33,138 nucleotides of DNA, from the NCBI GenBank assembly GCA_964590055.1, contig CAZPXU010000001.1, positions 1-33,138 on the forward strand, given 5' to 3'. This DNA is from an uncultured Candidatus Saccharibacteria bacterium (lineage in GTDB: Bacteria > Patescibacteriota > Minisyncoccia > JACPKW01 > UBA11713). Shown here one piece after another: positions 15,434 to 26,018 of the stretch (positions are counted from its first letter, which is position 1; the number at the start of each line of letters is the position of its first letter). A model generated the notes under the pieces. That model worked only from the letters and a program-made list of their open reading frames with translations. It was not told the DNA's origin and did no database searches. A program made the translations under genes and the position numbers.

Positions 15434-16390
15434 TTAACCGTTGGGTTTTTCCGCGGCCGGGCTTTGGTGGTCCCTTTCTAAAATATAATTGTAAGCCGAG
15501 AGCGCGGCCCGCACGCCGTCCCCCGCCGAGATATTATTCTGCTTGTAGAGTTCGTCCGTAATGTCGCCGGCCGCGAAAATTCCGGGCCGCGAGGTTGCGG
15601 CGCGCCGATGGTCCAGCGCTATTTCTCCAAACTGGTTTATTTCCACCAAGCCCCTGGCAATCTCGGAATTCGGCACCGAGCCGATTTCCACGAAGATCCC
15701 CTCCAGCTTCAGTTCTTTCGTCTCGCCGCTCTTATTGTTCGCAAGCACGACTCCCTCGACGAATTTATCGCCTTTAATCTCCCTAACTTCGGTGTTAAAC
15801 ATAATCTCAACTTTATCCGAAGCCGTCACTTTCTCCTGAGTGATCTGATCGCCCCTCAAAGCATCGCCGCGCGAGACAAGATGGATTTTGGCGGCATACG
15901 GGAAAAGGTCCACTACCGCCTCCAGGGCCGCGTTCCCGCCGCCCACCACCGCAACCGCCTTGCCGCCGAACAGGGGCGCGTCGCAAGTGGAGCAATACGC
16001 CACTCCTTTTCCTTCAAGTTTATCCTCGCCGGGGACTTTAAGGCGGCGGCGTCTCGCTCCGGCGGTTACGATCAAGGCTTTGGCCTCAAGTTTTTCTCCG
16101 CCTTCCGTCGTCACGGAAAAGTTTTTTCCGCTTTCCTCTATTTTTGCGGCCTTCTCCGGCATTTTAACTTCAACCGTCTCCTGCGCCCGGACATGCTCCT
16201 CCATCTTTTGGGCGAGTTCAAAACCCGAAATGGATTTAGTCCCGATCCAATTCTGAATGTCGTCGGAGGTTATGGACTGCCCGCCGAAAGACTCGGTTAT
16301 CAAAAGAGTGTTCAGGCGCTTGCGGCCCGCGTAAACCGCCGCCGCCGCTCCGGCGGGGCCTCCGCCAATAATGATTAAATCGTATAACAT
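15434..16390 (-). CDS. trxB: thioredoxin-disulfide reductase-like flavoprotein
   Basis: Motifs: IIIGGGPAGAAAAVYA, the redox motif CSTCD, VVGGGNAALE, GIFAAGD. Length 318 aa. Confidence 0.8.
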   Translation of the reverse strand: MLYDLIIIGGGPAGAAAAVYAGRKRLNTLLITESFGGQSITSDDIQNWIGTKSISGFELAQKMEEHVRAQETVEVKMPEKAAKIEESGKNFSVTTEGGEKLEAKALIVTAGARRRRLKVPGEDKLEGKGVAYCSTCDAPLFGGKAVAVVGGGNAALEAVVDLFPYAAKIHLVSRGDALRGDQITQEKVTASDKVEIMFNTEVREIKGDKFVEGVVLANNKSGETKELKLEGIFVEIGSVPNSEIARGLVEINQFGEIALDHRRAATSRPGIFAAGDITDELYKQNNISAGDGVRAALSAYNYILERDHQSPAAEKPNG

Positions 16391-16407: not shown

Positions 16408-17784
16408 TTATGGAACCAGCTCTGGCCCCTTGTTCCGGTATTTCGTAATGAAGCCGGTGACGCGCCCGTTGTCCAGGGGACTTCCCTCCAGGTCAAATTT
16501 ATCCAAACGACCCCAGGCGGCAAGCGCGATATCGGCATCATTTTTGGAACGGGGCGTTAAAACCACTTTGGAAAAATCCCGCGCGATATCTTCCAGTTCT
16601 TTTGTTACTTCTGCCGGAATGCCGGGGCGGTAGGAAATCCAAACCTCGCCGTGCTCCAAATTATGCACCAGATATTCATCCGCCACCTCCTCCTTGTGAA
16701 TCCCGCGGGAGGTCGTCTCCGGCCAATGCGGCCCCGAAGTCGGGGGATTGGAATTGTAATTTCTGACTTCGGTCCCGATGCTGACGTGGTCTCTCGATAA
16801 AATTTCAACCGCCCGGCTCAAATCCGGACCGGAAAGGTCTTGTCGCCCTGCCAACAAATAATAACCGCCATACAAAACCGCAGCCAAAACGGCCAAGATT
16901 AAAACCCACTTCAAAATCTTTTTCATAACCAGGCGCTTTTGGGACGCCTCGAGCCCGCTTTTGCGCTCCTGCCTTCTAAGCTCGCGGCGCTCTTTTCTGA
17001 ATAAAACCTGAATGTTTTCTTCCATTAAAATATTTTCTCCCAAAAGATAGCGATAATCAATAATCCTCTCATAATTTATGAAATCAAAAAGACGATATCC
17101 CCATTGTATCATAAGCGAAAAACGATTCGTAAGAAGCAAAATCCCGAGGCCGATTAAAATTAAACCTCCAACCACTGAAAAAATCCAAAGATATTTTGAA
17201 AGTTTCTCAATGTACTCTTGGGCCGAGCCCCAAGCCCAGGCTACCGCCAAGAAAGGGACGGCGAGTCCCGCGGAAAAAACGGCCAAAAGTCCGGCGCCTT
17301 GAATTGCCGTGGTCGAGGTGGAAGCCAGAAGCAAAATTGAACCGAGCACGGGACCCACGCAAGGCGTCCAGCCGAAGGCAAAAGCCGAACCTAGAAGAAA
17401 AGAAGTAGTGGGTCTGCCCCGTTCCAAACCGAAAGGCAACTTAATTTGTCGCGCTCGCTCTAAAAACGGGAGGCGAATCACATTCAGCATCACGAGCCCG
17501 AAAAGGATAACGAAAACTCCGGCTATCTTGGTAAGTCCTAGACGATACGGCCCCAAATTTGCGCCTAAAAATCCAAAAGCGCTGCCAAATAGAATAAAAA
17601 CAAGAGAGAAACCCAAAACGTAAGCCCAACCGTTCAGAAAAACCTTCCGGCGCACCCCGGTTTTATCCTCCGAAGAGACTCCCGAAATAAATCCCAAATA
17701 GGCCGGCACCAGGGGAAAAGTGCAGGGGGCAAGAAAAGTCAAAAGCCCCGCAACAAAAGCCGGAATTATAAGCGAGTACTCCAT
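16408..17784 (-). CDS. CcdA/DsbD-type thiol-disulfide transporter fused to a DUF3105 domain
   Basis: Residues 1-~235 form six TM helices carrying APC(21)TFP and TPC(142)VGP. A K/R/E-rich linker and one more TM helix (KWVLILAVLAAVLYGGYYLL) follow. The DUF3105 motifs are PPTSGPHWP and VHNLEHGEVWISYRP. Confidence 0.8.
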   Translation of the reverse strand: MEYSLIIPAFVAGLLTFLAPCTFPLVPAYLGFISGVSSEDKTGVRRKVFLNGWAYVLGFSLVFILFGSAFGFLGANLGPYRLGLTKIAGVFVILFGLVMLNVIRLPFLERARQIKLPFGLERGRPTTSFLLGSAFAFGWTPCVGPVLGSILLLASTSTTAIQGAGLLAVFSAGLAVPFLAVAWAWGSAQEYIEKLSKYLWIFSVVGGLILIGLGILLLTNRFSLMIQWGYRLFDFINYERIIDYRYLLGENILMEENIQVLFRKERRELRRQERKSGLEASQKRLVMKKILKWVLILAVLAAVLYGGYYLLAGRQDLSGPDLSRAVEILSRDHVSIGTEVRNYNSNPPTSGPHWPETTSRGIHKEEVADEYLVHNLEHGEVWISYRPGIPAEVTKELEDIARDFSKVVLTPRSKNDADIALAAWGRLDKFDLEGSPLDNGRVTGFITKYRNKGPELVP

Positions 17785-18218
17785 GATTTCAAAGCGCTGC
17801 GCTGAACCTCTTCCAGATGCATAGAGGGTCGCTTTTCTTTAACAAATACCTCGGCTTTCTCCGGCGGCGCGCCTTTGGTTTTCATTAAATAGGCGGCAAC
17901 CAAAGTTGGAGCCCGGCCGTGCCCGTTCCGGCAGTGAACATAAATTTTCTTTTTCATCTGAACTAATTTTTCTAAAACTGCAACCCCAAATTCCAGCTGC
18001 TCCGGAGTCGGCGCGGCGTTATTTTTAACCGGAATCCAGACATAAAATTGAACCCCGAAAGGCGCATCAATCCTTTCTTCCTCCAAAGATAGGTCGGAAG
18101 AAATCCCCTCTTTCAAAAGCTTCTCGTCAAAATGCGTTTGGCAGCACTGATTGGTGCCGATATAAATGCCGTCCGCGATATAACTATATTCAAGCTCTTT
18201 AATGGAGTGCGGGGTCAT
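17766..18218 (-). CDS. dual-specificity/tyrosine protein phosphatase-like protein
   Basis: 150 aa, with the HCX5R P-loop VHCRNGHGRAPTLVAAYLM. Confidence 0.8.
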   Translation of the reverse strand: MTPHSIKELEYSYIADGIYIGTNQCCQTHFDEKLLKEGISSDLSLEEERIDAPFGVQFYVWIPVKNNAAPTPEQLEFGVAVLEKLVQMKKKIYVHCRNGHGRAPTLVAAYLMKTKGAPPEKAEVFVKEKRPSMHLEEVQRSALKSWSTRL

Positions 18219-18225
18219 AAAGAAT

Positions 18226-18266
18226 AAAAGCGCTGCTTGTTTATATTAAATCCAAGCAGCGCTTTT
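18226..18266 (-). terminator. intrinsic-terminator-like hairpin spanning the AroE-like stop codon
   Basis: The 14-bp perfect arms are aaaagcgctgcttg (18226-18239) and caagcagcgctttt (18253-18266), with a 13-nt loop that contains the TAA. On the minus-strand RNA the GC-rich stem is followed by UUUUAUUCUUU. Confidence 0.55.
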
Positions 18267-19262
18267 CATTACTTGTTTCACCTCCTCCTTGTTAATATTT
18301 TTTGCAGCGAGTTCCCGGCCGTGGAGAATCCAGAACGCCTCGACCGCTTGATTTACCACCATCCCGGTGCCGTCCAGAACTTTAAATCCCATCTTCCCGG
18401 CCTCCGCCAAAGTTCTGGTAGGCTCTTTTCTGAGCATGATGTCAGAAATTATAACCTCTCTATTTAACTGTCCCAGAATCCTTCGGCCGCTCTCAATATT
18501 CTTCCGGAGATTCTCTTCACTTGCGGGCAGCTCGACTTCTCCGAAAGCAACATATTGTTCTAAAGGCGAGTGAGGATCGTCAATCGCCGCCACCACCGCT
18601 TGGACTTCCAGAACTCGCGACGGTATTTCCTCTCTCCCCCCGCCGTAAGCCCTCGGCTTTCCGAAAAAATCGTTAATCCGCTTTGCCAGGGCTGCTGCCT
18701 TCCCCGGCGTCCGATTCAAAATAATAACTTCATTTGCTGACTCGGCCAGCGCAAAGGCAATGGCGTTCCCGGCGCCGCCTGCTCCCAGGACAAGAATTTT
18801 CTTCCCTTCAAGCTTCCCGCCTCTCTCGCTAAATACCGCCTCGAGGCTCTGGCGGTAGCCAACCCCGTCAGTACTTATCCCCCGCAATTTCCCTTCCTCG
18901 GTCTTAAGAATAAAATTTACCGCCCCGATGGCTTTTTCAATCTGCCCCAGCTCGTCAAGCCACCCGAGAGCTTCATCCTTAAAACCTATGCCGGTATTGC
19001 TGCCAAGAAATTTCGGATCGCACCTGAATACTTCGAAAATCTCGGGAATCCGAGCCGGGTCGCCCACTAGTGCGACATTGCCAGCTGCGAGCGAGAACTT
19101 GCGATAAGCCGCATTCCAAAGCTGAGGGGTTCTTGCGGGGTAGTCTTTTTCGCCGAGCCAGATGGTATAGCGAGAGAAATCAAGACGAGCTGGATTATCT
19201 TGCGGCTCCTGAGCATAGGACAAAAGCTCGTGCTCAATTAAATCGGATATTTGCATTGTCAT
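18246..19262 (-). CDS. shikimate/quinate dehydrogenase family protein (divergent, 338 aa)
   Basis: Motifs: ARTPQLWNAAY, GSNTGIGFKDE, IGAVNFIL....GKLRGISTDGVGY, and the Rossmann motif VLGAGGAGNAIAFAL. Confidence 0.7.
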   Translation of the reverse strand: MTMQISDLIEHELLSYAQEPQDNPARLDFSRYTIWLGEKDYPARTPQLWNAAYRKFSLAAGNVALVGDPARIPEIFEVFRCDPKFLGSNTGIGFKDEALGWLDELGQIEKAIGAVNFILKTEEGKLRGISTDGVGYRQSLEAVFSERGGKLEGKKILVLGAGGAGNAIAFALAESANEVIILNRTPGKAAALAKRINDFFGKPRAYGGGREEIPSRVLEVQAVVAAIDDPHSPLEQYVAFGEVELPASEENLRKNIESGRRILGQLNREVIISDIMLRKEPTRTLAEAGKMGFKVLDGTGMVVNQAVEAFWILHGRELAAKNINKEEVKQVMKSAAWI

Positions 19263-19273
19263 TGTTTCCTCCT

Positions 19274-19675
19274 TTAGATATACTCGAAGTGAATGAGACT
19301 GATAATGTCCTCGTAGCTGAACTCTTGGTTATAGATTAATCCCAAATGATATTTTATTAGTTCTCTCGACTGGCAATCTGGCGAAGCGAACTTTAATTCT
19401 GCTTTTCTTGTCCAACCCAGCTCTTTTACAACGATCTTCAAAATCCTAGCCCTGGCCTCAAACCCGTCAAAAATAGGAAGCAAATTCCACTTTTCCGCTC
19501 CGGGCTCTTGTAACACCCTTAATCTGACTTTCTGATGTTCCTTGAACCCCTTTGGATTCGGATACCTTCTGTCTCCGGGTTTTATGATAAGCTTCAGCCG
19601 CTTGTCCTTCAATAACGCTCGGTAAGGAAAGCGAAACCAGAGTTCATCAGCTAAATTCGACCTTTTTCCTTTCAT
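19274..19675 (-). CDS. hypothetical protein, possibly ASCH/PUA-like
   Basis: I chose the ATG at 19675; the track start at 19735 is a TTG that overlaps the SIS gene further. The ASCH resemblance is loose (..LKLIIKPGDRRY..., C-terminal ISLIHFEYI). Confidence 0.45.
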   Translation of the reverse strand: MKGKRSNLADELWFRFPYRALLKDKRLKLIIKPGDRRYPNPKGFKEHQKVRLRVLQEPGAEKWNLLPIFDGFEARARILKIVVKELGWTRKAELKFASPDCQSRELIKYHLGLIYNQEFSYEDIISLIHFEYI

Positions 19676-20312
19676 CTTGATTTCCTTTCTTTTTTGATTT
19701 TTTACCCAATGTTCCGCCGGGATGAATTTTGGCAAAATGTTTCAATTTAATCCCTTTAAGTTCTTGAAGCGCACTCGCCAGCGCATCTCCAATCGCAAGC
19801 GTAACCAAGGTAGAGGTAGTCGGCGCCAGATTAAAAGTGGTGCAGATTTTACAAGCCTCCTCGGCAACGCGGGTCAGCAAAACCACATCCGCCACCTTCG
19901 CCAGCGTGGAATTTTCAGTTCCGGCAATCAAAACTATTTTATTTTTAAAGTTCTTTCTAACGGCGGCGACGAAACTCACAACCTCGGGGGTCTCGCCGCT
20001 ATGGGAGATTAACACAATCGCGTCCTCTGTTTCAACCATTCCCAAATCCCCGTGCAACGCCTCCGTTGGATGCAAAAATAAGCTGAAGGTGCCGGTGGAG
20101 GAAAGGGTCGCCGCAATTTTTCGGGCCACAATCCCGGATTTTCCAAGGCCAGATAGTATTATTTTCCCTTTGCACTCACAGATCAGTCTAACCGCTTTTG
20201 CAAAGTTCGAATCCAGCTTCTCCGCGACGTGCTTTACCGCCGCAGCTTCATTCTCCAAAACTTCCCTTCCGATTCGTAAGATATCATTTTTTTTAAAACT
20301 ATTACTTTTCAT
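19647..20312 (-). CDS. SIS-domain sugar-phosphate isomerase, KpsF/GutQ-like but without CBS domains
   Basis: GKIILSGLGKSGIVARKIAATLSSTGTFSLFLHPTEALHGDLGMV...VLISHSGETPEV closely follows the KpsF SIS signature. The protein ends just after HPGGTLGKK, where KpsF would continue into its CBS pair. Confidence 0.8.
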   Translation of the reverse strand: MKSNSFKKNDILRIGREVLENEAAAVKHVAEKLDSNFAKAVRLICECKGKIILSGLGKSGIVARKIAATLSSTGTFSLFLHPTEALHGDLGMVETEDAIVLISHSGETPEVVSFVAAVRKNFKNKIVLIAGTENSTLAKVADVVLLTRVAEEACKICTTFNLAPTTSTLVTLAIGDALASALQELKGIKLKHFAKIHPGGTLGKKSKKKGNQDERKKVEFS

Positions 20313-20322
20313 TTTTGCCTAG

Positions 20323-21682
20323 CTATACCATGTAAGCGACGTCTGAAAAACTGGTGGGATAGGCCCAGGGAATTTCCCGAAGTTCGGAAGCGGGAAAACC
20401 TTTTCGGATGGCGAGAGCAAAAACATTGATTACTTCTTCGGCATGCGCCCCAAAAAGATGCGCTCCCAAAATTTTCCCGCTCCCCTCCTCTATCAGCACC
20501 TTATAACCGGTGGGCCGCAGGTTCAGTCGCCGCGAGGAGTACCATTCCGAGGTATCGGCGTGATTCACTCGAAACTTCAAACCCTGCTTCTGCGCGATCT
20601 CCTCGCTTAATCCGACTGCCGCCAGGGGCGGGAGAGTGAACACTACACTTGGTACTCCGAGGTAATTTAGGGTGGCGTGATTTTTGTCAAGAAGATTTTT
20701 CGCAGCCACCGCCCCTTCCAGGCCCGCCACCGGCGTCAAGGGAAAGCCGCCCGAGACCGCGGCATCGCCAGCCGCATAGACGCGCGGGTTGGTAACGCTC
20801 TGAAGATATTCATTTACCACCACTCCTTTTCGCTCCCTCTTGATATGCGCCCTCTCCAGTTCTAAATCGTCAATATCGGGAATCCGACCTGCGCCGTGGA
20901 CCACCAATTCGGCTTCAAACTTTTTGGTATGACCGTCCGAGGAGGCATAGACGTAAAAACCATTCGCGCCTTTTTCAATTCGTTCGACGGCGCTACTGAC
21001 TGCCAGGTTTATGCCGACTTCCCGGCTTGTTTCCGAAAGCATTCTTACCAGATCCGGATCAAATAATTCCAAGGGCCTGGGCCCGCGATGAAGAATCGTA
21101 ACCCCGGCGCCGGCCCGCGCCGCCACATGCGCGAATTCGAAGGAGATATAGCCGCCCCCCGACAAAAACAATTTGCCTGGGAAGCGCCGCAAGTTCTAAA
21201 AATTGGGTACTGGTGGCAAGATGTTCTTCCCCGGGAATACCCAGCGTTTGGGGCTTGGCGCCGGCGGCGATTAAAAAATAATCGGCGCTAAAAATTTTTT
21301 CTCCAACTTGAACGGCATCGTCATCAACAAATCTAGCCCGCCCCTTCAGAAGCTCGATGCCCGCCGCTTGGGCTGAACTACGGTAATGTTCCGAAACGGA
21401 GCCGGTAAAGCTCTTTTTGAAACGAATCAAGGCGGGCCAATCAATTTCGGTATTCCCCCGGATGATTTTTTTAGCTAAAAACCGCCTCTGCCAATCCATG
21501 AACTCTGCGCCTCCCACCAGAACTTTTTTAGGGTCGCAACCGCGTAGGGCGCAGGTTCCGCCGAAAGGATTAGAATCAATTATCAAAACCTCCCAGCCTC
21601 GCTTGCGGCAAGCGTAAGCGGCAGCGGACCCGGCGGCCCCGCTTCCTATTACGATTAGATTAAATTTATCATTAGACTTCAT
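20323..21682 (-). pseudogene. class-I pyridine nucleotide-disulfide oxidoreductase (glutathione-reductase-like), interrupted by a 1-nt frameshift
   Basis: ORFs 21059-21682 and 20323-21192 are the two halves of one ~452-aa protein. It carries GSGAAGSAAA (FAD) and GGTCALRGCDPKK (redox centre). The frame breaks inside IVFVGG|GYISFEFA at the C6 run 21155-21160. Deleting one base restores the frame. Confidence 0.8.
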
Positions 21683-21848
21683 TTAATTTTTCCGGCATTA
21701 TTCCCTGCTTGATAATTTCTAGGTTGCAGCTTTTCTTCTCGCGGCACCAATCTTCGCATTTTTGGGCAATCTCTTTGTCTTGGTACAAAAATCCGCAGGC
21801 TTCGCACTGGTAATGGGTTTTATTGTTCTCTTGAATAATTTTTACCAT
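21672..21848 (-). CDS. small Cys-rich (zinc-ribbon-like) protein, 58 aa
   Basis: MVKIIQENNKTHYQCEACGFLYQDKEIAQKCEDWCREKKSC... The ATG at 21848 lies 1 nt after the LUD stop. The 3' end overlaps the oxidoreductase start by 11 nt. Confidence 0.55.
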   Translation of the reverse strand: MVKIIQENNKTHYQCEACGFLYQDKEIAQKCEDWCREKKSCNLEIIKQGIMPEKLNEV

Positions 21849-21849
21849 A

Positions 21850-22470
21850 CTAAAATCCAAGTTTTTCCTTGACCAGGATAATAGTAATGCGGCCAGGTTG
21901 AAATTCTTTATTGATAATCAAAATTTTATTGACTCCGCTCCCCATGCCGTAAACCTTTCTGGCGCGCTCGTCTTCCAACGGCAAAGCATATTCATAAAGG
22001 CGCTTTAATCCTTCTGCAACGTTCTTTACAATTTTTTGGGCACCGACCACCCAAACCACTTTCGCTGCGCCGTAAGCATAAGCCGGGAGTTGGCTGCCGG
22101 TGGCGGAGGCCACCAGAACTTCCCCATCCTCGGTTACGGCATGCGCGCTCCCCACCGCCCATTCCGGCGCCGCTCCCAGGCGGCGCTTCTCGGCGCTTTG
22201 AGTTTTATCGTCCATCTGATTCAAAAGATTCCGCACGGATTTAAAATCCCCTCCTTTGTTTATTTCCGCGGGAACGCCGATGGCCTCCAAGGTCATTGAG
22301 GTCATATCCATGACCTCGGCGCCTTCGGGAATAATCTCAAAAAGCTTTGCCCTCGCCTCGGCCCCGTTCCCTGCCACCAAAGCCGTAATGCCGTTTTTCT
22401 CAAGCGCCGCTTTAGCTCTTGCGATTGAGGCGTCATCAGGAAGCTCTCCAAATTTGTCGTTTATTTCCAT
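21850..22470 (-). CDS. LUD-domain (DUF162, LutC/YkgG-like) protein
   Basis: 206 aa. The overall pattern (N-terminal ...ALEKNGITALVAGNGAEA..., central GSAHAVTEDGEVLVAS) resembles LUD-domain proteins. This is recognition by eye only. Confidence 0.65.
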   Translation of the reverse strand: MEINDKFGELPDDASIARAKAALEKNGITALVAGNGAEARAKLFEIIPEGAEVMDMTSMTLEAIGVPAEINKGGDFKSVRNLLNQMDDKTQSAEKRRLGAAPEWAVGSAHAVTEDGEVLVASATGSQLPAYAYGAAKVVWVVGAQKIVKNVAEGLKRLYEYALPLEDERARKVYGMGSGVNKILIINKEFQPGRITIILVKEKLGF

Positions 22471-22475
22471 ATTTT

Positions 22476-23000
22476 TTAATTGTTAGCCATTAAACTTGTA
22501 ATCCGGCCTTTAATTTCTTCCAAATCCATCGGGCCGCGCTTATGAAACGCGATATTTCCATCTTTGCTGACAAAAATCGTCTCCGGCATGGAAAAACCGC
22601 CGATGGACTGATAAAAAGAATCAGCCGGGTCAAGCAGAAAAACCAAATCATCCGTCACCCCCAAGTCATCCGTGAATTTTTTGGCCGTTGCCAACGGTTC
22701 GGCGCGGTCAATCGCGATTATAACAATTTTATCGCCGAATTCTTTTTGAGCCGTCGCAAAATCCTCCAGCTCCTTTACGCAAAAGGGGCACCAGGCCGCC
22801 CAAGCGTTTAGGACGAGGGGCTTTCCTTTAAAATCCGCCAGGCTTACGCTCTTGCCATTATAATCATTAAGCGAAAATTCCGGAGCTTTGCGAGAGTTGC
22901 CGGTTGAATTCATATTTTGGTGTTGACCCGTGTTGGAAATCAGCAACCACCCGACTATAACTAAAACCGCAATGCTGATAATAATTAAAGGTATTTTCAT
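22476..23000 (-). CDS. TM-anchored TlpA/ResA-like thioredoxin-fold thiol-disulfide oxidoreductase
   Basis: An N-terminal helix is followed by GKPLVLNAWAAWCPFCVKE. Confidence 0.85.
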   Translation of the reverse strand: MKIPLIIISIAVLVIVGWLLISNTGQHQNMNSTGNSRKAPEFSLNDYNGKSVSLADFKGKPLVLNAWAAWCPFCVKELEDFATAQKEFGDKIVIIAIDRAEPLATAKKFTDDLGVTDDLVFLLDPADSFYQSIGGFSMPETIFVSKDGNIAFHKRGPMDLEEIKGRITSLMANN

Positions 23001-23015
23001 ATTATAATTTTGGTA

Positions 23016-23408
23016 CTACGTTTGTAATTGCGGAGCCGGCGGCTTTTTAAAGAGATATTTATTGTAGATCACCGCTCCGATGATGAGTACGGCACCCGGT
23101 CCCCAAATCTGCCACGCGCCCCATGTGCTTAAAAATACGTATCGACCGACATAAAGAAGTGCCGCACCAAGAGAAAGAAGTGCTAACGGATAGGGGTTTC
23201 TATGAGATCTGTAGTCAAAGATAAAGCCGATTGCGCCAAGAGCAATCAACCCGAATGCAAACCAACGCCATGCCGGTATGAGAGCTCCCAAACCTAAATA
23301 TGTTAAAAGAGAAGCCGAACCAATCCAGCAAAGCGGGCAGACTCCAATTGCTCCCGCTCCCAAAATCGGCGTCAATCTTATTGATAACTTTTTGAAATTA
23401 TTTGTCAT
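23016..23408 (-). CDS. 4-TM membrane protein with an intramembrane CPLC motif (loosely MerC-like)
   Basis: GAGAIGVCPLCWIGSASLL lies in TM1. The loop DYRSHRNPYP sits between TM2 and TM3. Architecture and Cys placement recall MerC, but the assignment is weak. Confidence 0.6.
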   Translation of the reverse strand: MTNNFKKLSIRLTPILGAGAIGVCPLCWIGSASLLTYLGLGALIPAWRWFAFGLIALGAIGFIFDYRSHRNPYPLALLSLGAALLYVGRYVFLSTWGAWQIWGPGAVLIIGAVIYNKYLFKKPPAPQLQT

Positions 23409-23417
23409 CGCTCATGA

Positions 23418-24455
23418 TTATTTAAATAATTCTGTCTCCGGATGCGTCGCCGCCCAAGAAAACCAAAAGGCCGAAAAAGGGTTTATACGCTCTAATTTAC
23501 CATCTGGAAATTTTTTATACATACGGATAACGTCCAACTCTTTTTCATACCTAAGTAAAAAGGTCTCACCGGCAAAAGCGTCTTCCGCCTCTCCGGCTTT
23601 CTTCACCGCCTCCACGCTCCAGGCCTTTGCCTTTTCTCCGGACGCGAGCCCGAAAACGAAGGCGTTGGGCGCGAGGCGCCGGTCGGAAAAATTCGTTAAG
23701 TCCAAAGAAAAGCCGGTAACGGCGTAGTAATCGCCGTAAGGGTTATAGCCGTAAGACCTCATAGTGCCGGTCTCCTGGGACAGGACTTCGCCGTCGGGAT
23801 GCGAGCGTTTCCATTCCCCGAAGCGCAGCTGGTCGGAGGGCAGAAGTTTCAATTTTGTCCCCGTCATTTCGCCGACCACCGCCTCCCCCAAAATCTGCGG
23901 CCACAGAGATTCGGTTTTGCGGTCGTACATTACGAGATTGGATTTCCATAAACTTCCCGAAGTTCCGAACTCAACCCGCTCCCCCTTCACCAAAGGGTCA
24001 AAGACAAAACCCGTAAGGCACAAGGGACAATAGGTCACCAAAACGCGCTCGCCGGAGACAACATCGTTCACAATCTCATGCCAAACTAAAATCCGGTAGG
24101 GGTAAAAGCGATGGGCAGAGCCGCGAGAAAACGCGACCCCGGGATTATCGTCCGGCAACCATTTCTTCGCCTCCGTGACGGACACAAACTTGGGGCGGTC
24201 AATGGACGGTATCCCGTCTTTGCCCGGCCCGCCGGAGATAATTTCATTAAGCGGAACGCTATGTTTTACGCCATCGGTAACCATGATTTTCTTTTCAACA
24301 ATTTCACCATCTTTATCATTTTCAACAACTCCAACACTCTCGACTTTAGTCTCGCCGCCTTGCGGCAATTTAAAATCTTCCCTGAAAAATCTCGACCAGA
24401 TGAAAACGCCTCCCGCAACCAGAATTAAAATTACCAAAACCCAATTCGCTTTCAT
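23418..24455 (-). CDS. DUF3179-domain secreted or anchored protein
   Basis: An N-terminal helix is followed by DGIPSIDRPKF...YPYRILVWHEIVND...VLVTYCPLCLTG, which is characteristic of DUF3179. Confidence 0.8.
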   Translation of the reverse strand: MKANWVLVILILVAGGVFIWSRFFREDFKLPQGGETKVESVGVVENDKDGEIVEKKIMVTDGVKHSVPLNEIISGGPGKDGIPSIDRPKFVSVTEAKKWLPDDNPGVAFSRGSAHRFYPYRILVWHEIVNDVVSGERVLVTYCPLCLTGFVFDPLVKGERVEFGTSGSLWKSNLVMYDRKTESLWPQILGEAVVGEMTGTKLKLLPSDQLRFGEWKRSHPDGEVLSQETGTMRSYGYNPYGDYYAVTGFSLDLTNFSDRRLAPNAFVFGLASGEKAKAWSVEAVKKAGEAEDAFAGETFLLRYEKELDVIRMYKKFPDGKLERINPFSAFWFSWAATHPETELFK

Positions 24456-24688
24456 TTGATTTTCAAAAGCTCCCGCAATTTTTCCTCATCAAAACCAATC
24501 ACAATCCCGCCGTCGATTTCCGTAACCGGAACGCCCATCTGCCCGGATTTTTGAATCATTTCCCGGGCATTATCCTGATTTCCGGCAACATCTTTCTCCT
24601 CATAAACTACCGCGTTCTTTTTGAAAAACTCCTTGGTGGCGCGGCACCAGACGCAAGTGGGAGTGGAATAGATGGTTACTTTTGGCAT
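24452..24688 (-). CDS. glutaredoxin-like (NrdH/YruB-type) small redoxin
   Basis: 78 aa, VTIYSTPTCVWCRATKEFF...GVPVTEIDG. Its stop forms a 4-nt overlap with the DUF3179 start. Confidence 0.85.
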   Translation of the reverse strand: MPKVTIYSTPTCVWCRATKEFFKKNAVVYEEKDVAGNQDNAREMIQKSGQMGVPVTEIDGGIVIGFDEEKLRELLKIK

Positions 24689-24689
24689 G

Positions 24690-25004
24690 TTAAATTCTTA
24701 AAACTCTAATAATGGCTCCAACCGCGGGATCGCTTTTTTTCACTTCATAACAAATCATCTGGCCGTGGCGTTCCCTCCGGACAAGCCCGGCCCGCTCCAG
24801 AACGCGAAGTTGCTGGGAAGCGGCCGGCACCGAGATCCCCAGCACGCGGGCGATATCGGTCACGCAGGCTTCCGACTCCGAGAGCAGTATTTTAAAAATA
24901 CGAAAGCGCCCGGGGTCTGAAAGCGCCGCAAAAAAAACCGACAGCCGTTCCTCGCCTGGCTCCAGCACCTTCTTCAATTTTATGATTTTCGTCTTTGGAA
25001 ACAT
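24690..25004 (-). CDS. ArsR/SmtB-family winged-helix transcriptional regulator
   Basis: Motifs: FFAALSDPGRFRIFKILL..EACVTDIARVLGISVPAASQQLRVLERAGLVRRERHGQ. The ATG at 25004 is preferred to the TTG at 25022. Confidence 0.85.
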   Translation of the reverse strand: MFPKTKIIKLKKVLEPGEERLSVFFAALSDPGRFRIFKILLSESEACVTDIARVLGISVPAASQQLRVLERAGLVRRERHGQMICYEVKKSDPAVGAIIRVLRI

Positions 25005-25029
25005 TATTAAGTGTTTAAGCAATTATTTA

Positions 25030-25058
25030 ATAATAAAAACATAATAAAAAGCCGTCAA
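25030..25058 (-). promoter_or_regulatory. candidate sigma70-type promoter for the arsR operon
   Basis: On the minus strand: TTGACG (25058-25053), a 17-nt spacer, then TATTAT (25035-25030), about 25 nt upstream of the arsR ATG. Pattern match only. Confidence 0.35.
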
Positions 25059-25101
25059 GCGCGGCTGGGGATAAGTCGGATTAGGACTTACTGCTCTTGG
25101 T

Positions 25102-25281
25102 CTATTCTTCGTCTTCTTCCGGCATCAAAACCCGGACTTCTTTCTTGCACTCGCACCATTGGCAGCGCCCATCCTTGTATTTCTTGCCGTGCTGATGTTT
25201 GCACTTTGCGCAGGAAACTATCGGACAGCCGCAGGGGCAGACTTTTAAATGGTGGTGCCCGCATTCTTCGCAGTGGGGCAT
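25102..25281 (-). CDS. 59-aa Cys/His-rich, metallothionein-like small protein
   Basis: One codon below the track cutoff. My base-by-base translation is MPHCEECGHHHLKVCPCGCPIVSCAKCKHQHGKKYKDGRCQWCECKKEVRVLMPEEDEE*, with 10 Cys and 6 His. It is co-oriented with all neighbours and starts 14 nt after the DsbA-like stop. The 90-aa plus-strand ORF in the track is antisense to it. Confidence 0.5.
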   Translation of the reverse strand: MPHCEECGHHHLKVCPCGCPIVSCAKCKHQHGKKYKDGRCQWCECKKEVRVLMPEEDEE

Positions 25282-25295
25282 GAAATTATTTTTAC

Positions 25296-26018
25296 TTAAT
25301 CAAGGCCGAGAGTTGCCGCGAAACTTTTAAGATTCCGGTCCGAAAACGCGCCAACGTTCTCGCCGCTTATGTTTTTGGAGTAATAGTTGTCCCAGATGTA
25401 ATTAAAAAGGTAATCATGGTACTCCCAGAATTTCCCCTGCTCCCCGGCGCACCTGGCCGCCTCGGCCGCGCGCGCTGATTCCTCGCCCAAAAAAGCGAAA
25501 TCGCGCCAGACAAACGCGGTTTTCCCGGATTTCAAATACGTTTCTTTCAGCTGCTGTTCGGTGGTCTTAAAAAATTTCCCGCAAAACGGGCACTGGAAAT
25601 CCCCGTATTCGATAATCGCGACTTTGGCCGCGGGAGACCCCAAAACAAAATCATCTTCGCGGATTTTCAAAGCATCCGGCAAGGAGGAATTCTGCGACGC
25701 CAGCTCCGCTTCAATCGGCTCCTGAAAAGACGAAAACGGCACCGCGCCGGAAACCATCCGGCCATTTACGAAAGTGGCCGGCGTGCCGTTAACGCCCAAA
25801 GTTTTTCCCTCTTCCGTCGCGGCTTCAACGGCTTTCCTGTGCTTGCCCGAATCCAGACAGGAAGCAAAAACGGGAGGAAACGAGGCATCGTCTCCGGAAC
25901 CGGAGGGCGCAGAAGAAAGTTTCAGCCCCGGCCTGGCATAAACCACCGCCGCGGCTATCAGAACCCCAGCAACGATGATGCTGGCAGGTACAAGATAGGG
26001 ATTTCGTCCTTGGTCCAT
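25296..26018 (-). CDS. TM-anchored DsbA-family (Thioredoxin_4-like) protein with permuted segment order
   Basis: The CPFC segment (AKVAIIEYGDFQCPFCGKF...GKFWEYHDYLF...FAATLGLD) lies C-terminal. The segment that normally ends the domain (FASCLDSGKHRKAV....LGVNGTPATFVNG) lies N-terminal, right after the TM helix. Confidence 0.85.
   Translation of the reverse strand: MDQGRNPYLVPASIIVAGVLIAAAVVYARPGLKLSSAPSGSGDDASFPPVFASCLDSGKHRKAVEAATEEGKTLGVNGTPATFVNGRMVSGAVPFSSFQEPIEAELASQNSSLPDALKIREDDFVLGSPAAKVAIIEYGDFQCPFCGKFFKTTEQQLKETYLKSGKTAFVWRDFAFLGEESARAAEAARCAGEQGKFWEYHDYLFNYIWDNYYSKNISGENVGAFSDRNLKSFAATLGLD

Follow-up and report, generated by a model that had tools for sequence, protein, structure and literature searches.

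A conserved Cys/His-rich microprotein gene of Giovannonibacteria lies in a dsbA–trxB block, and its ArsR neighbour is very probably secondary

The window (the whole 33,138-nt stretch of DNA analysed here) carries on its minus strand, at positions 25102–25281, a 59-codon gene for a Cys/His-rich microprotein. Our reading, to which as a whole we assign a probability of roughly 0.55, is that (i) the 59-codon frame is a real gene, (ii) it belongs to a dsbA–trxB block, (iii) the ArsR/SmtB-family regulator gene beside it is a secondary neighbour, and (iv) its product would be a multi-metal zinc-thiolate redox module. The gene defines an orphan family of Cys/His microproteins, which standard pipelines label at most as "hypothetical". 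Its analysis also overturns an appealing inference, the analogy with smtA/smtB that a first-pass annotation of this DNA had drawn.

The 59-codon frame is a real gene

The coding sequence (25102–25281, minus strand) begins with ATG and ends with TAG (25102–25104). Codons 1–45 (25147–25281) form a conserved core rich in potential metal ligands; the remaining codons (25105–25146) encode a variable tail, the C-terminus of which (EEDEE) is acidic, as described in the first-pass annotation. The reported Cys/His richness was likewise verified from the letters: 16 of the 59 residues are Cys (positions 4, 7, 15, 17, 19, 24, 27, 40, 43 and 45) or His (positions 3, 9, 10, 11, 29 and 31). Among 3096 open reading frames (ORFs) of at least 50 aa, mechanically called across the whole 553-kb genome, this ORF has the highest Cys content (17%; runner-up, 11%), and a proteome proxy of the same genome contains 0.7% Cys and 2.0% His. 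The Cys content is thus far above chance. Neither a signal peptide nor a transmembrane segment was found in the 59-aa protein, and it is predicted to be cytoplasmic.

Could the frame nevertheless be open by chance? It is short, it lacks a Shine-Dalgarno sequence, and the ORF on the opposite strand is open too: a track-listed 90-aa ORF (25011–25283, plus strand) does overlap it in antisense, as had been pointed out. The substitution pattern refutes this possibility, which we give next to no credence. The closest relative, on metagenome contig ORJL011393608.1 (locus L016), encodes a peptide that is 97% identical. The two genes differ at 26 of 177 coding positions, distributed 1/1/24 over the three codon positions, with 24 synonymous and 2 non-synonymous changes (pS 0.77, pN 0.014). 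Scored in the frame of the 90-aa ORF, only 1 of the differences from L016 is synonymous and 25 are non-synonymous, so that ORF is a by-product and not a gene; antisense open frames in the relatives vary in length (47, 73 and 88 aa). A second close pair of loci (L002 and L030) gives an omega of 0.06, and values for unsaturated or near-identical pairs lie between 0.02 and 0.06.

The checks that had been proposed, dN/dS and conservation of the frame, hence both favour the small gene: its reading frame is kept in 16 other loci, the 11 distinct sequences align without frame disruption and share invariant ligands, and the opposite 90-aa frame is not conserved. Gene callers in other assemblies record relatives as hypothetical proteins. 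With regard to translation signals, AGGAGG was found at 1 of the 32 window genes examined and the rest have A/T-rich leaders; as 31 of these 32 genes are also without a Shine-Dalgarno sequence, its absence from the small gene is normal here. We are almost certain that the 59-codon frame is a real gene, and its substitution pattern argues for strong purifying selection.

Constraint on this gene stands out locally. Its flanks are, on both sides, unalignable between the window and L016, and proteins encoded next to it on these two contigs share just 44–69% identity (against 97% for the 59-aa peptide), which makes the latter the most constrained gene of the area. Given the tiny genomes of the Candidate Phyla Radiation, the 97% amino acid identity and the saturation of synonymous sites, the gene probably does something specific.

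An orphan family with 14 invariant ligands

Ten distinct relatives of the 59-aa protein were found in the 16 other loci, all from Candidatus Giovannonibacteria or groundwater metagenomes (the groundwater contigs carrying the gene came from metagenome scans). A HMMER search of 1.84 billion representative proteins added two further clusters of the family, and a word-indexed profile search returned four clusters, near relatives only, one of which is recorded as a "hypothetical protein" from a Paceibacterota MAG. Strong genome matches (E ≤ 2.3e-23) occur in four of the 401 genomes sampled from the class, all four in the window's own taxonomic family; within that family, the gene is present in four of ten genomes and four of seven genera, with six genomes lacking it. 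The protein family is confined to part of the Giovannonibacteria. Weak class-wide HMM matches in three genomes of other taxonomic families (G235, G241 and G141; E-values 3e-4 to 9e-3) were discounted, that in G235 being rejected as off-frame inside a 418-aa gene.

The family alignment holds 11 distinct sequences, that of the window included; with so few, statistics on co-variation and on presence/absence are weak. Invariant in all 11 are M1, C4, C7, G8, H9, H11, C15, C17, G18, C19, C24, C27, H29, H31, G38, C40, C43 and C45, a set that contains ten Cys, four His and three Gly and places 14 potential metal ligands, soft or borderline in character, within 45 residues. Elsewhere, loop length varies, a basic loop is conserved, the charged tail is variable, and the C-terminal 10–20 residues differ in both length and sequence. 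Dense, invariant Cys and His residues under purifying selection, in 11 sequences, are what a small Cys/His-rich, putatively metal-binding microprotein in the generic sense presents.

On direct reading the core consists of two repeats: C-x2-C-x-H-x-H-x3-C-x-C-G-C, followed by C-x2-C-x-H-x-H-x5-8-C-x(1-2)-C-x-C. The internal repeat is supported by locus L004, in which the second tri-Cys motif (CxCGC) is the same as the first.

No known family or fold is matched

Pfam and NCBIfam scans with the 59-aa protein and all 11 family members returned no match at E ≤ 10, including to PF02069, the SmtA/BmtA family. A profile search of the PDB at E ≤ 10 gave chance-level matches only (cytochrome c3, E = 0.16; Not4 RING, E = 0.56), with no SmtA chain among them. 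Two proposals made from the letters of this stretch thus hold: the peptide has no similarity to SmtA/BmtA, and it represents a new small family, an orphan without a Pfam, NCBIfam or PDB match. AlphaFold modelled the protein with a confidence too low to locate metal sites (pLDDT 58 with seven sequences, 63 with 11), and Foldseek comparison of both models against the PDB gave nothing below E = 0.3; no fold is claimed.

One alternative that these searches bear on is a structural zinc finger: an adaptor or regulator of cross-brace, RING-like or zinc-ribbon type that binds protein or nucleic acid and plays no role in metal homeostasis or redox. The Cys order fits a C4C4 RING (C4-x2-C7 ... C17-x-C19-x4-C24-x2-C27-x12-C40-x2-C43), in line with the weak Not4 alignment. 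The non-significant top matches from Foldseek are all zinc modules (PHD, RING and zinc-ribbon, with the three-zinc RING of APC11 among them), and the conserved basic loop and variable charged tail would suit an adaptor. However, no match is significant, and H9, H11, C15, H29, H31 and C45 are left unexplained by a two-zinc cross-brace. RING proteins further differ in context, the protein being bacterial and without any E2/E3 setting, and the E-values of the comparison are 0.56 and above 1. Compatibility of the Cys spacing with a RING-like cross-brace is a lead, not a finding, and we consider a purely structural zinc finger distinctly unlikely.

Zinc-finger microproteins with CPxCG motifs from haloarchaea offer a comparison in size. 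These proteins are about 60 aa long and cytoplasmic, carry four Cys pairs, form orphan families and usually act as regulators or adaptors. The 59-aa protein resembles them in size and in its build from CxxC knuckles, a likeness in kind only; they are without conserved His, whereas the present family combines ten Cys with two HxH pairs and tri-Cys motifs. Overall, its ligand pattern appears to match no described metallothionein or zinc finger.

Two further assignments were considered and rejected. For a haem protein or c-type cytochrome, the CxxC pairs would have to run CxxCH and instead run CxxCxH; there is no signal peptide, and the cytochrome c3 match has E = 0.16. For a rubredoxin- or ferredoxin-type carrier, there is neither a Pfam match nor a CxxCxxCxxxCP motif.

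The small gene belongs to a dsbA–trxB block

Gene order is the same in 16 of 16 other loci: a gene for a DsbA-like protein, the small gene, optionally a DUF3105 gene, and a gene for a TrxB-like reductase. Gaps within this ancestral block are mostly −14 to +22 nt, with longer upstream spacers in L004 (77 nt) and L016 (172 nt). In the relatives, the stop codon of the small gene is followed by DUF3105 or TrxB within 1–22 nt (55 nt in L004); in L016, DUF3105 begins 4 nt past it, and there is no ArsR gene. The spacing of the small gene to the genes for the membrane-anchored DsbA-like protein and the TrxB-like flavoprotein is consistent with co-transcription. Five related genomes contain DsbA-(DUF3105)-TrxB, with gaps of 3–22 nt, and no small gene, which makes the latter an accessory member of the block. 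Across the 16 other loci, the ancestral context of the small gene includes no metal transporter or sensor, and an ArsR gene is absent from all of them.

In the window, the DsbA-like gene (Thioredoxin_4 in Pfam; 25296–26018, minus strand) lies 14 nt upstream of the small gene. The gene for TrxB, a thioredoxin-reductase-like flavoprotein and conserved block member, is at 15434–16390 (minus strand); after it come the genes for glutamate dehydrogenase and GAPDH, an order shared with L021. The window's DUF3105 and TrxB genes lie about 8 kb further downstream of the small gene.

An ArsR-led block of about 8 kb has been inserted beside the small gene

Positions 17026–25101 (minus strand) are occupied by a block of about 8.1 kb. 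Its content comprises ArsR, a Grx-like protein, DUF3179, a MerC-like protein, a redoxin, LUD, DUF7128, a split flavoprotein disulfide reductase, SIS, a shikimate-dehydrogenase-like protein, a DSP phosphatase and CcdA. At its far end, CcdA (DsbD_TM in Pfam) is fused in frame to DUF3105, giving a 458-aa protein (16408–17784, minus strand), the DUF3105 part of which (16408–17025, minus strand) represents the gene that ancestrally followed the small gene. The complete 200-aa DUF3105 protein of L016 aligns to residues 258–458 of the fusion at 60% identity, and at residue 254 the sequence MEEN... still marks where DUF3105 used to start. From this alignment and old start, together with the tight adjacency in relatives, it follows that 17026–25101 is an insertion placed exactly between the small gene and DUF3105, and it is on account of this insertion that the small gene adjoins ArsR in this genome only. 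GC content is 0.487 in the block and 0.526 in the flanks; no direct or inverted repeats of at least 9 nt flank its edges.

The CcdA–DUF3105 fusion, which apparently was made at the right edge of the insertion, places a membrane-spanning shuttle for thiol electrons and an extracytoplasmic domain of unknown function in one polypeptide. Literature searches on DUF3105 and on the thiol-redox system of Patescibacteria returned nothing relevant.

The inserted module itself is widespread: ArsR-Grx-DUF3179 (with or without MerC-like, redoxin and CcdA genes) occurs in 19 other loci, spread over many other Paceibacteria families, and a homologue of the small gene accompanies it at none of the 19. One genome (G006) has both the small gene and the module, on different contigs. 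What appears to be a ten-gene "ArsR operon" is hence a composite, in which this module has been inserted into the older dsbA–trxB block, and dsbA and the small gene are outside the ArsR-led unit.

The smtA/smtB analogy is largely refuted

The gene for the ArsR/SmtB-family HTH regulator (24690–25004/25022, minus strand; HTH_5, E = 1.3e-14; NF033788, 80.8 bits) is the first of the inserted block. It does begin next to the small gene, 79 nt downstream and co-directional, and the first-pass annotation had taken the two for the classic smtA/smtB arrangement, in which the adjacent repressor would sense metal and control the small gene. Physical adjacency in the window, across the 79-nt gap, speaks for such a pair, as does the best PDB match of the regulator, SmtB (1r1t, E = 6e-12).

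Three observations stand against it. Firstly, a search for homologues beside arsR-family genes, suggested as a check, finds the homologues and an ArsR gene beside none of the 16 loci; the adjacency stems from the insertion of a module that travels without the small gene. Secondly, the regulatory arrangement differs. In the known pair, smtB is transcribed divergently from smtA, with a shared intergenic operator (PMC7387436), whereas here the small gene is upstream and co-directional, and a terminator-like hairpin and a promoter-like site lie between the two genes. The hairpin (25050–25066, minus strand), described earlier as weak and followed by a U-rich tract, was also found by a terminator scan downstream of the small gene, where a T-run follows it; folding of the spacer gives an unremarkable z-score of −1.74. 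The promoter candidate for the ArsR-led unit (25030–25058, minus strand) is sigma-70-like (TTGACG, 17 nt, TATTAT; 10/12). An inverted repeat over the arsR start (25004–25017 / 25034–25047) may be an operator; no further copy of its arm was found within the window, so the candidate operator sits solely at the start of arsR.

Thirdly, the regulator lacks a complete canonical metal site. Its alignment with SmtB stops at residue 103, before alpha-5; the alpha-5 His/Asp/Glu site is absent, and the remaining 15 C-terminal residues contain no His. The N-terminal arm contains no Cys or His, and so offers no alpha-3N ligands, while the ELCV(C/G)D motif reads EACVTD, with a single Cys. The window regulator thus differs from SmtB in the missing alpha-5 site as well as in an adjacency that is not conserved.

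The microprotein does share features with SmtA/BmtA, the metallothioneins of cyanobacteria and Pseudomonas with a Zn4(Cys9His2)-type cluster: a length of about 55–60 aa, a cytoplasmic location, mixed Cys/His ligands at similar density and, in this window, an adjoining ArsR/SmtB-family gene. It differs in having no sequence match to that family and a ligand pattern of its own, which is internally duplicated. As tests by profile, by comparison with sequences of known structure and by regulatory arrangement all failed, we do not count the protein among SmtA/BmtA. The smtA/smtB-like model is largely refuted and in our judgement very improbable, and the link of ArsR to the small gene is very probably secondary.

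Some ORFs in ArsR modules merit separate mention. In genome G258 (L082:1614–1850, plus strand), the ORF directly after an ArsR-Grx pair begins with a CxxC, followed by five tandem GKCCG repeats; this ORF, which really is part of an ArsR module, is the more metallothionein-like candidate. In the window, a class-I flavoprotein disulfide reductase (MerA/GR/lipoamide-DH-like; 20323–21682, minus strand) is split into overlapping ORFs of 207 and 289 aa, a frameshift that would reflect either a pseudogene or an assembly error. Between this reductase and the LUD gene lies a Cys-containing ORF of 62 aa (21672–21860, minus strand; Pfam DUF7128, E = 1e-7), which was considered as a relative of the 59-aa protein and found to be unrelated. 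A similar ORF follows ArsR in another genome (L080, 1896–2126), which makes it a recurrent member of the ArsR module.

A putative zinc-thiolate module in a thiol-redox setting

Based on its ligand pattern, the 59-aa protein quite probably binds some metal. We propose that about three metal ions, or perhaps four, would be held by the 14 invariant ligands; Zn(II) is the likeliest metal, its identity being a guess. The peptide would owe its fold to two sites of Cys4 type, and an additional site, from which metal would exchange more readily, would be built from the two HxH pairs together with spare Cys. Such a zinc-thiolate module would be coupled to thiol redox in the cytoplasm, as a redox-labile metal store or switch or as an adaptor of the thiol-redox system. 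This specific redox role, the link to redox coming from gene order only, is tentative and somewhat doubtful. Six of the ten related genomes do without the small gene, and its position beside TrxB may be without functional significance, since the block also holds housekeeping GDH and GAPDH genes.

The setting is as follows. TrxB and a Grx-like protein of about 80 aa are found in ten of ten genomes of the taxonomic family (G000–G009). A canonical thioredoxin of about 105 aa was not detected in these ten genomes (the best PF00085 match, 42 bits, is inside longer frames; G000 is 89% complete), which suggests a TrxB/Grx-like redox couple in Giovannonibacteria. If the protein is a redox-coupled zinc protein, it would be a new component of the poorly understood Patescibacteria thiol-redox system, which seemingly consists of TrxB and the Grx-like protein.

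Redox-labile zinc-thiolate centres occur in the N-terminal zinc finger of E. coli Trx2, in Hsp33 and in RsrA. The likeness to these lies in Cys-ligated zinc sites in or beside genes of the thioredoxin system, where, in the proposed scheme, zinc is lost on oxidation and the site is then restored by the thioredoxin system. The 59-aa protein differs from all three in being unrelated in sequence, free-standing and equipped with many more ligands, and its redox behaviour is taken from context.

A bolder version of the proposal, which we regard as rather unlikely, would make the protein the founding member of a new metalloprotein family, with a pseudo-symmetric Cys10His4 centre of three to four metals that would store or sense zinc in a redox-switchable manner and be serviced by TrxB and the Grx-like protein. 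At the more extreme end, it would relay electrons or metal between TrxB and the membrane branch of CcdA and DsbA.

The protein may also work like a metallothionein. In this alternative, it would be a cytoplasmic buffer or detoxifier (of Zn, Cd or Cu(I)) from a new family, co-transcribed with dsbA and free of ArsR control. It is an extreme compositional outlier, with 27% Cys plus His; its 14 invariant ligands in 45 residues would suffice for a Zn3-4 cluster with bridging thiolates; and it is accessory in its lineage, as metal-tolerance genes often are. Dense Cys and His with only ligands and Gly invariant, and with loops of variable length, fit such a buffer equally well. There is, however, no match to PF02069 or to an SmtA chain in the PDB, and the ancestral context lacks a metal transporter or sensor. 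In addition, between close relatives the non-ligand residues are under very strong purifying selection too, which suggests a defined fold or a partner surface over a simple sponge. We deem a metallothionein-like buffer unlikely.

A likeness by description exists to MymT, the mycobacterial Cu(I) metallothionein: it is likewise small, lineage-restricted and Cys/His-rich, with motifs of CxC/CGC type. MymT is copper-induced, whereas nothing links the small gene to copper. MymT is mentioned in an article that also covers smtA (PMC7387436).

Finally, the even number of Cys residues, and a DsbA-like oxidoreductase encoded always directly upstream, could point to an exported peptide whose ten Cys are oxidised by that enzyme to five disulfides, such as a signalling peptide or one resembling a leaderless bacteriocin. 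Yet neither a signal peptide or leader nor a transporter gene is present, Cys4 lies only three residues from the start, and the HxH pairs, being invariant, speak for a role as metal ligands. Relatives that lack the small gene have the DsbA gene too, which is a housekeeping one. An exported peptide thus appears even less credible than an smtA/smtB-like pair, and we retain the zinc-thiolate module as our preferred reading.

The locus is a mosaic

The DsbA-like protein of the window is circularly permuted relative to its L016 orthologue (66–69% identical): it runs from the transmembrane anchor through the C-terminal segment (aa 51–106) to the catalytic segment with CPFC (aa 111–240). The permuted form is common to a group of metagenome loci (L020–L028), at about 90% identity. 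At the DNA level, the window's dsbA and the spacer between dsbA and the small gene are about 91% identical to the L020/L021 group (dsbA pS 0.13). Divergence then jumps at the small gene, with a pS of 0.63 to L020, and the encoded protein is of the L016 type (97%); the DUF3105 and TrxB genes of the window are also nearer to L016. The locus is thus mosaic, L021-like in dsbA and the spacer and of L016 type from about the start of the small gene, with a recombination breakpoint at or just inside this gene. This pattern indicates homologous recombination between Giovannonibacteria lineages at 25100–25300.

At its other end, dsbA is overlapped by a gene for a 903-aa surface protein, which covers the dsbA start by 61 nt (25958–26018). 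The same overlap is seen in L016, which suggests conserved translational coupling of envelope-protein genes with dsbA.
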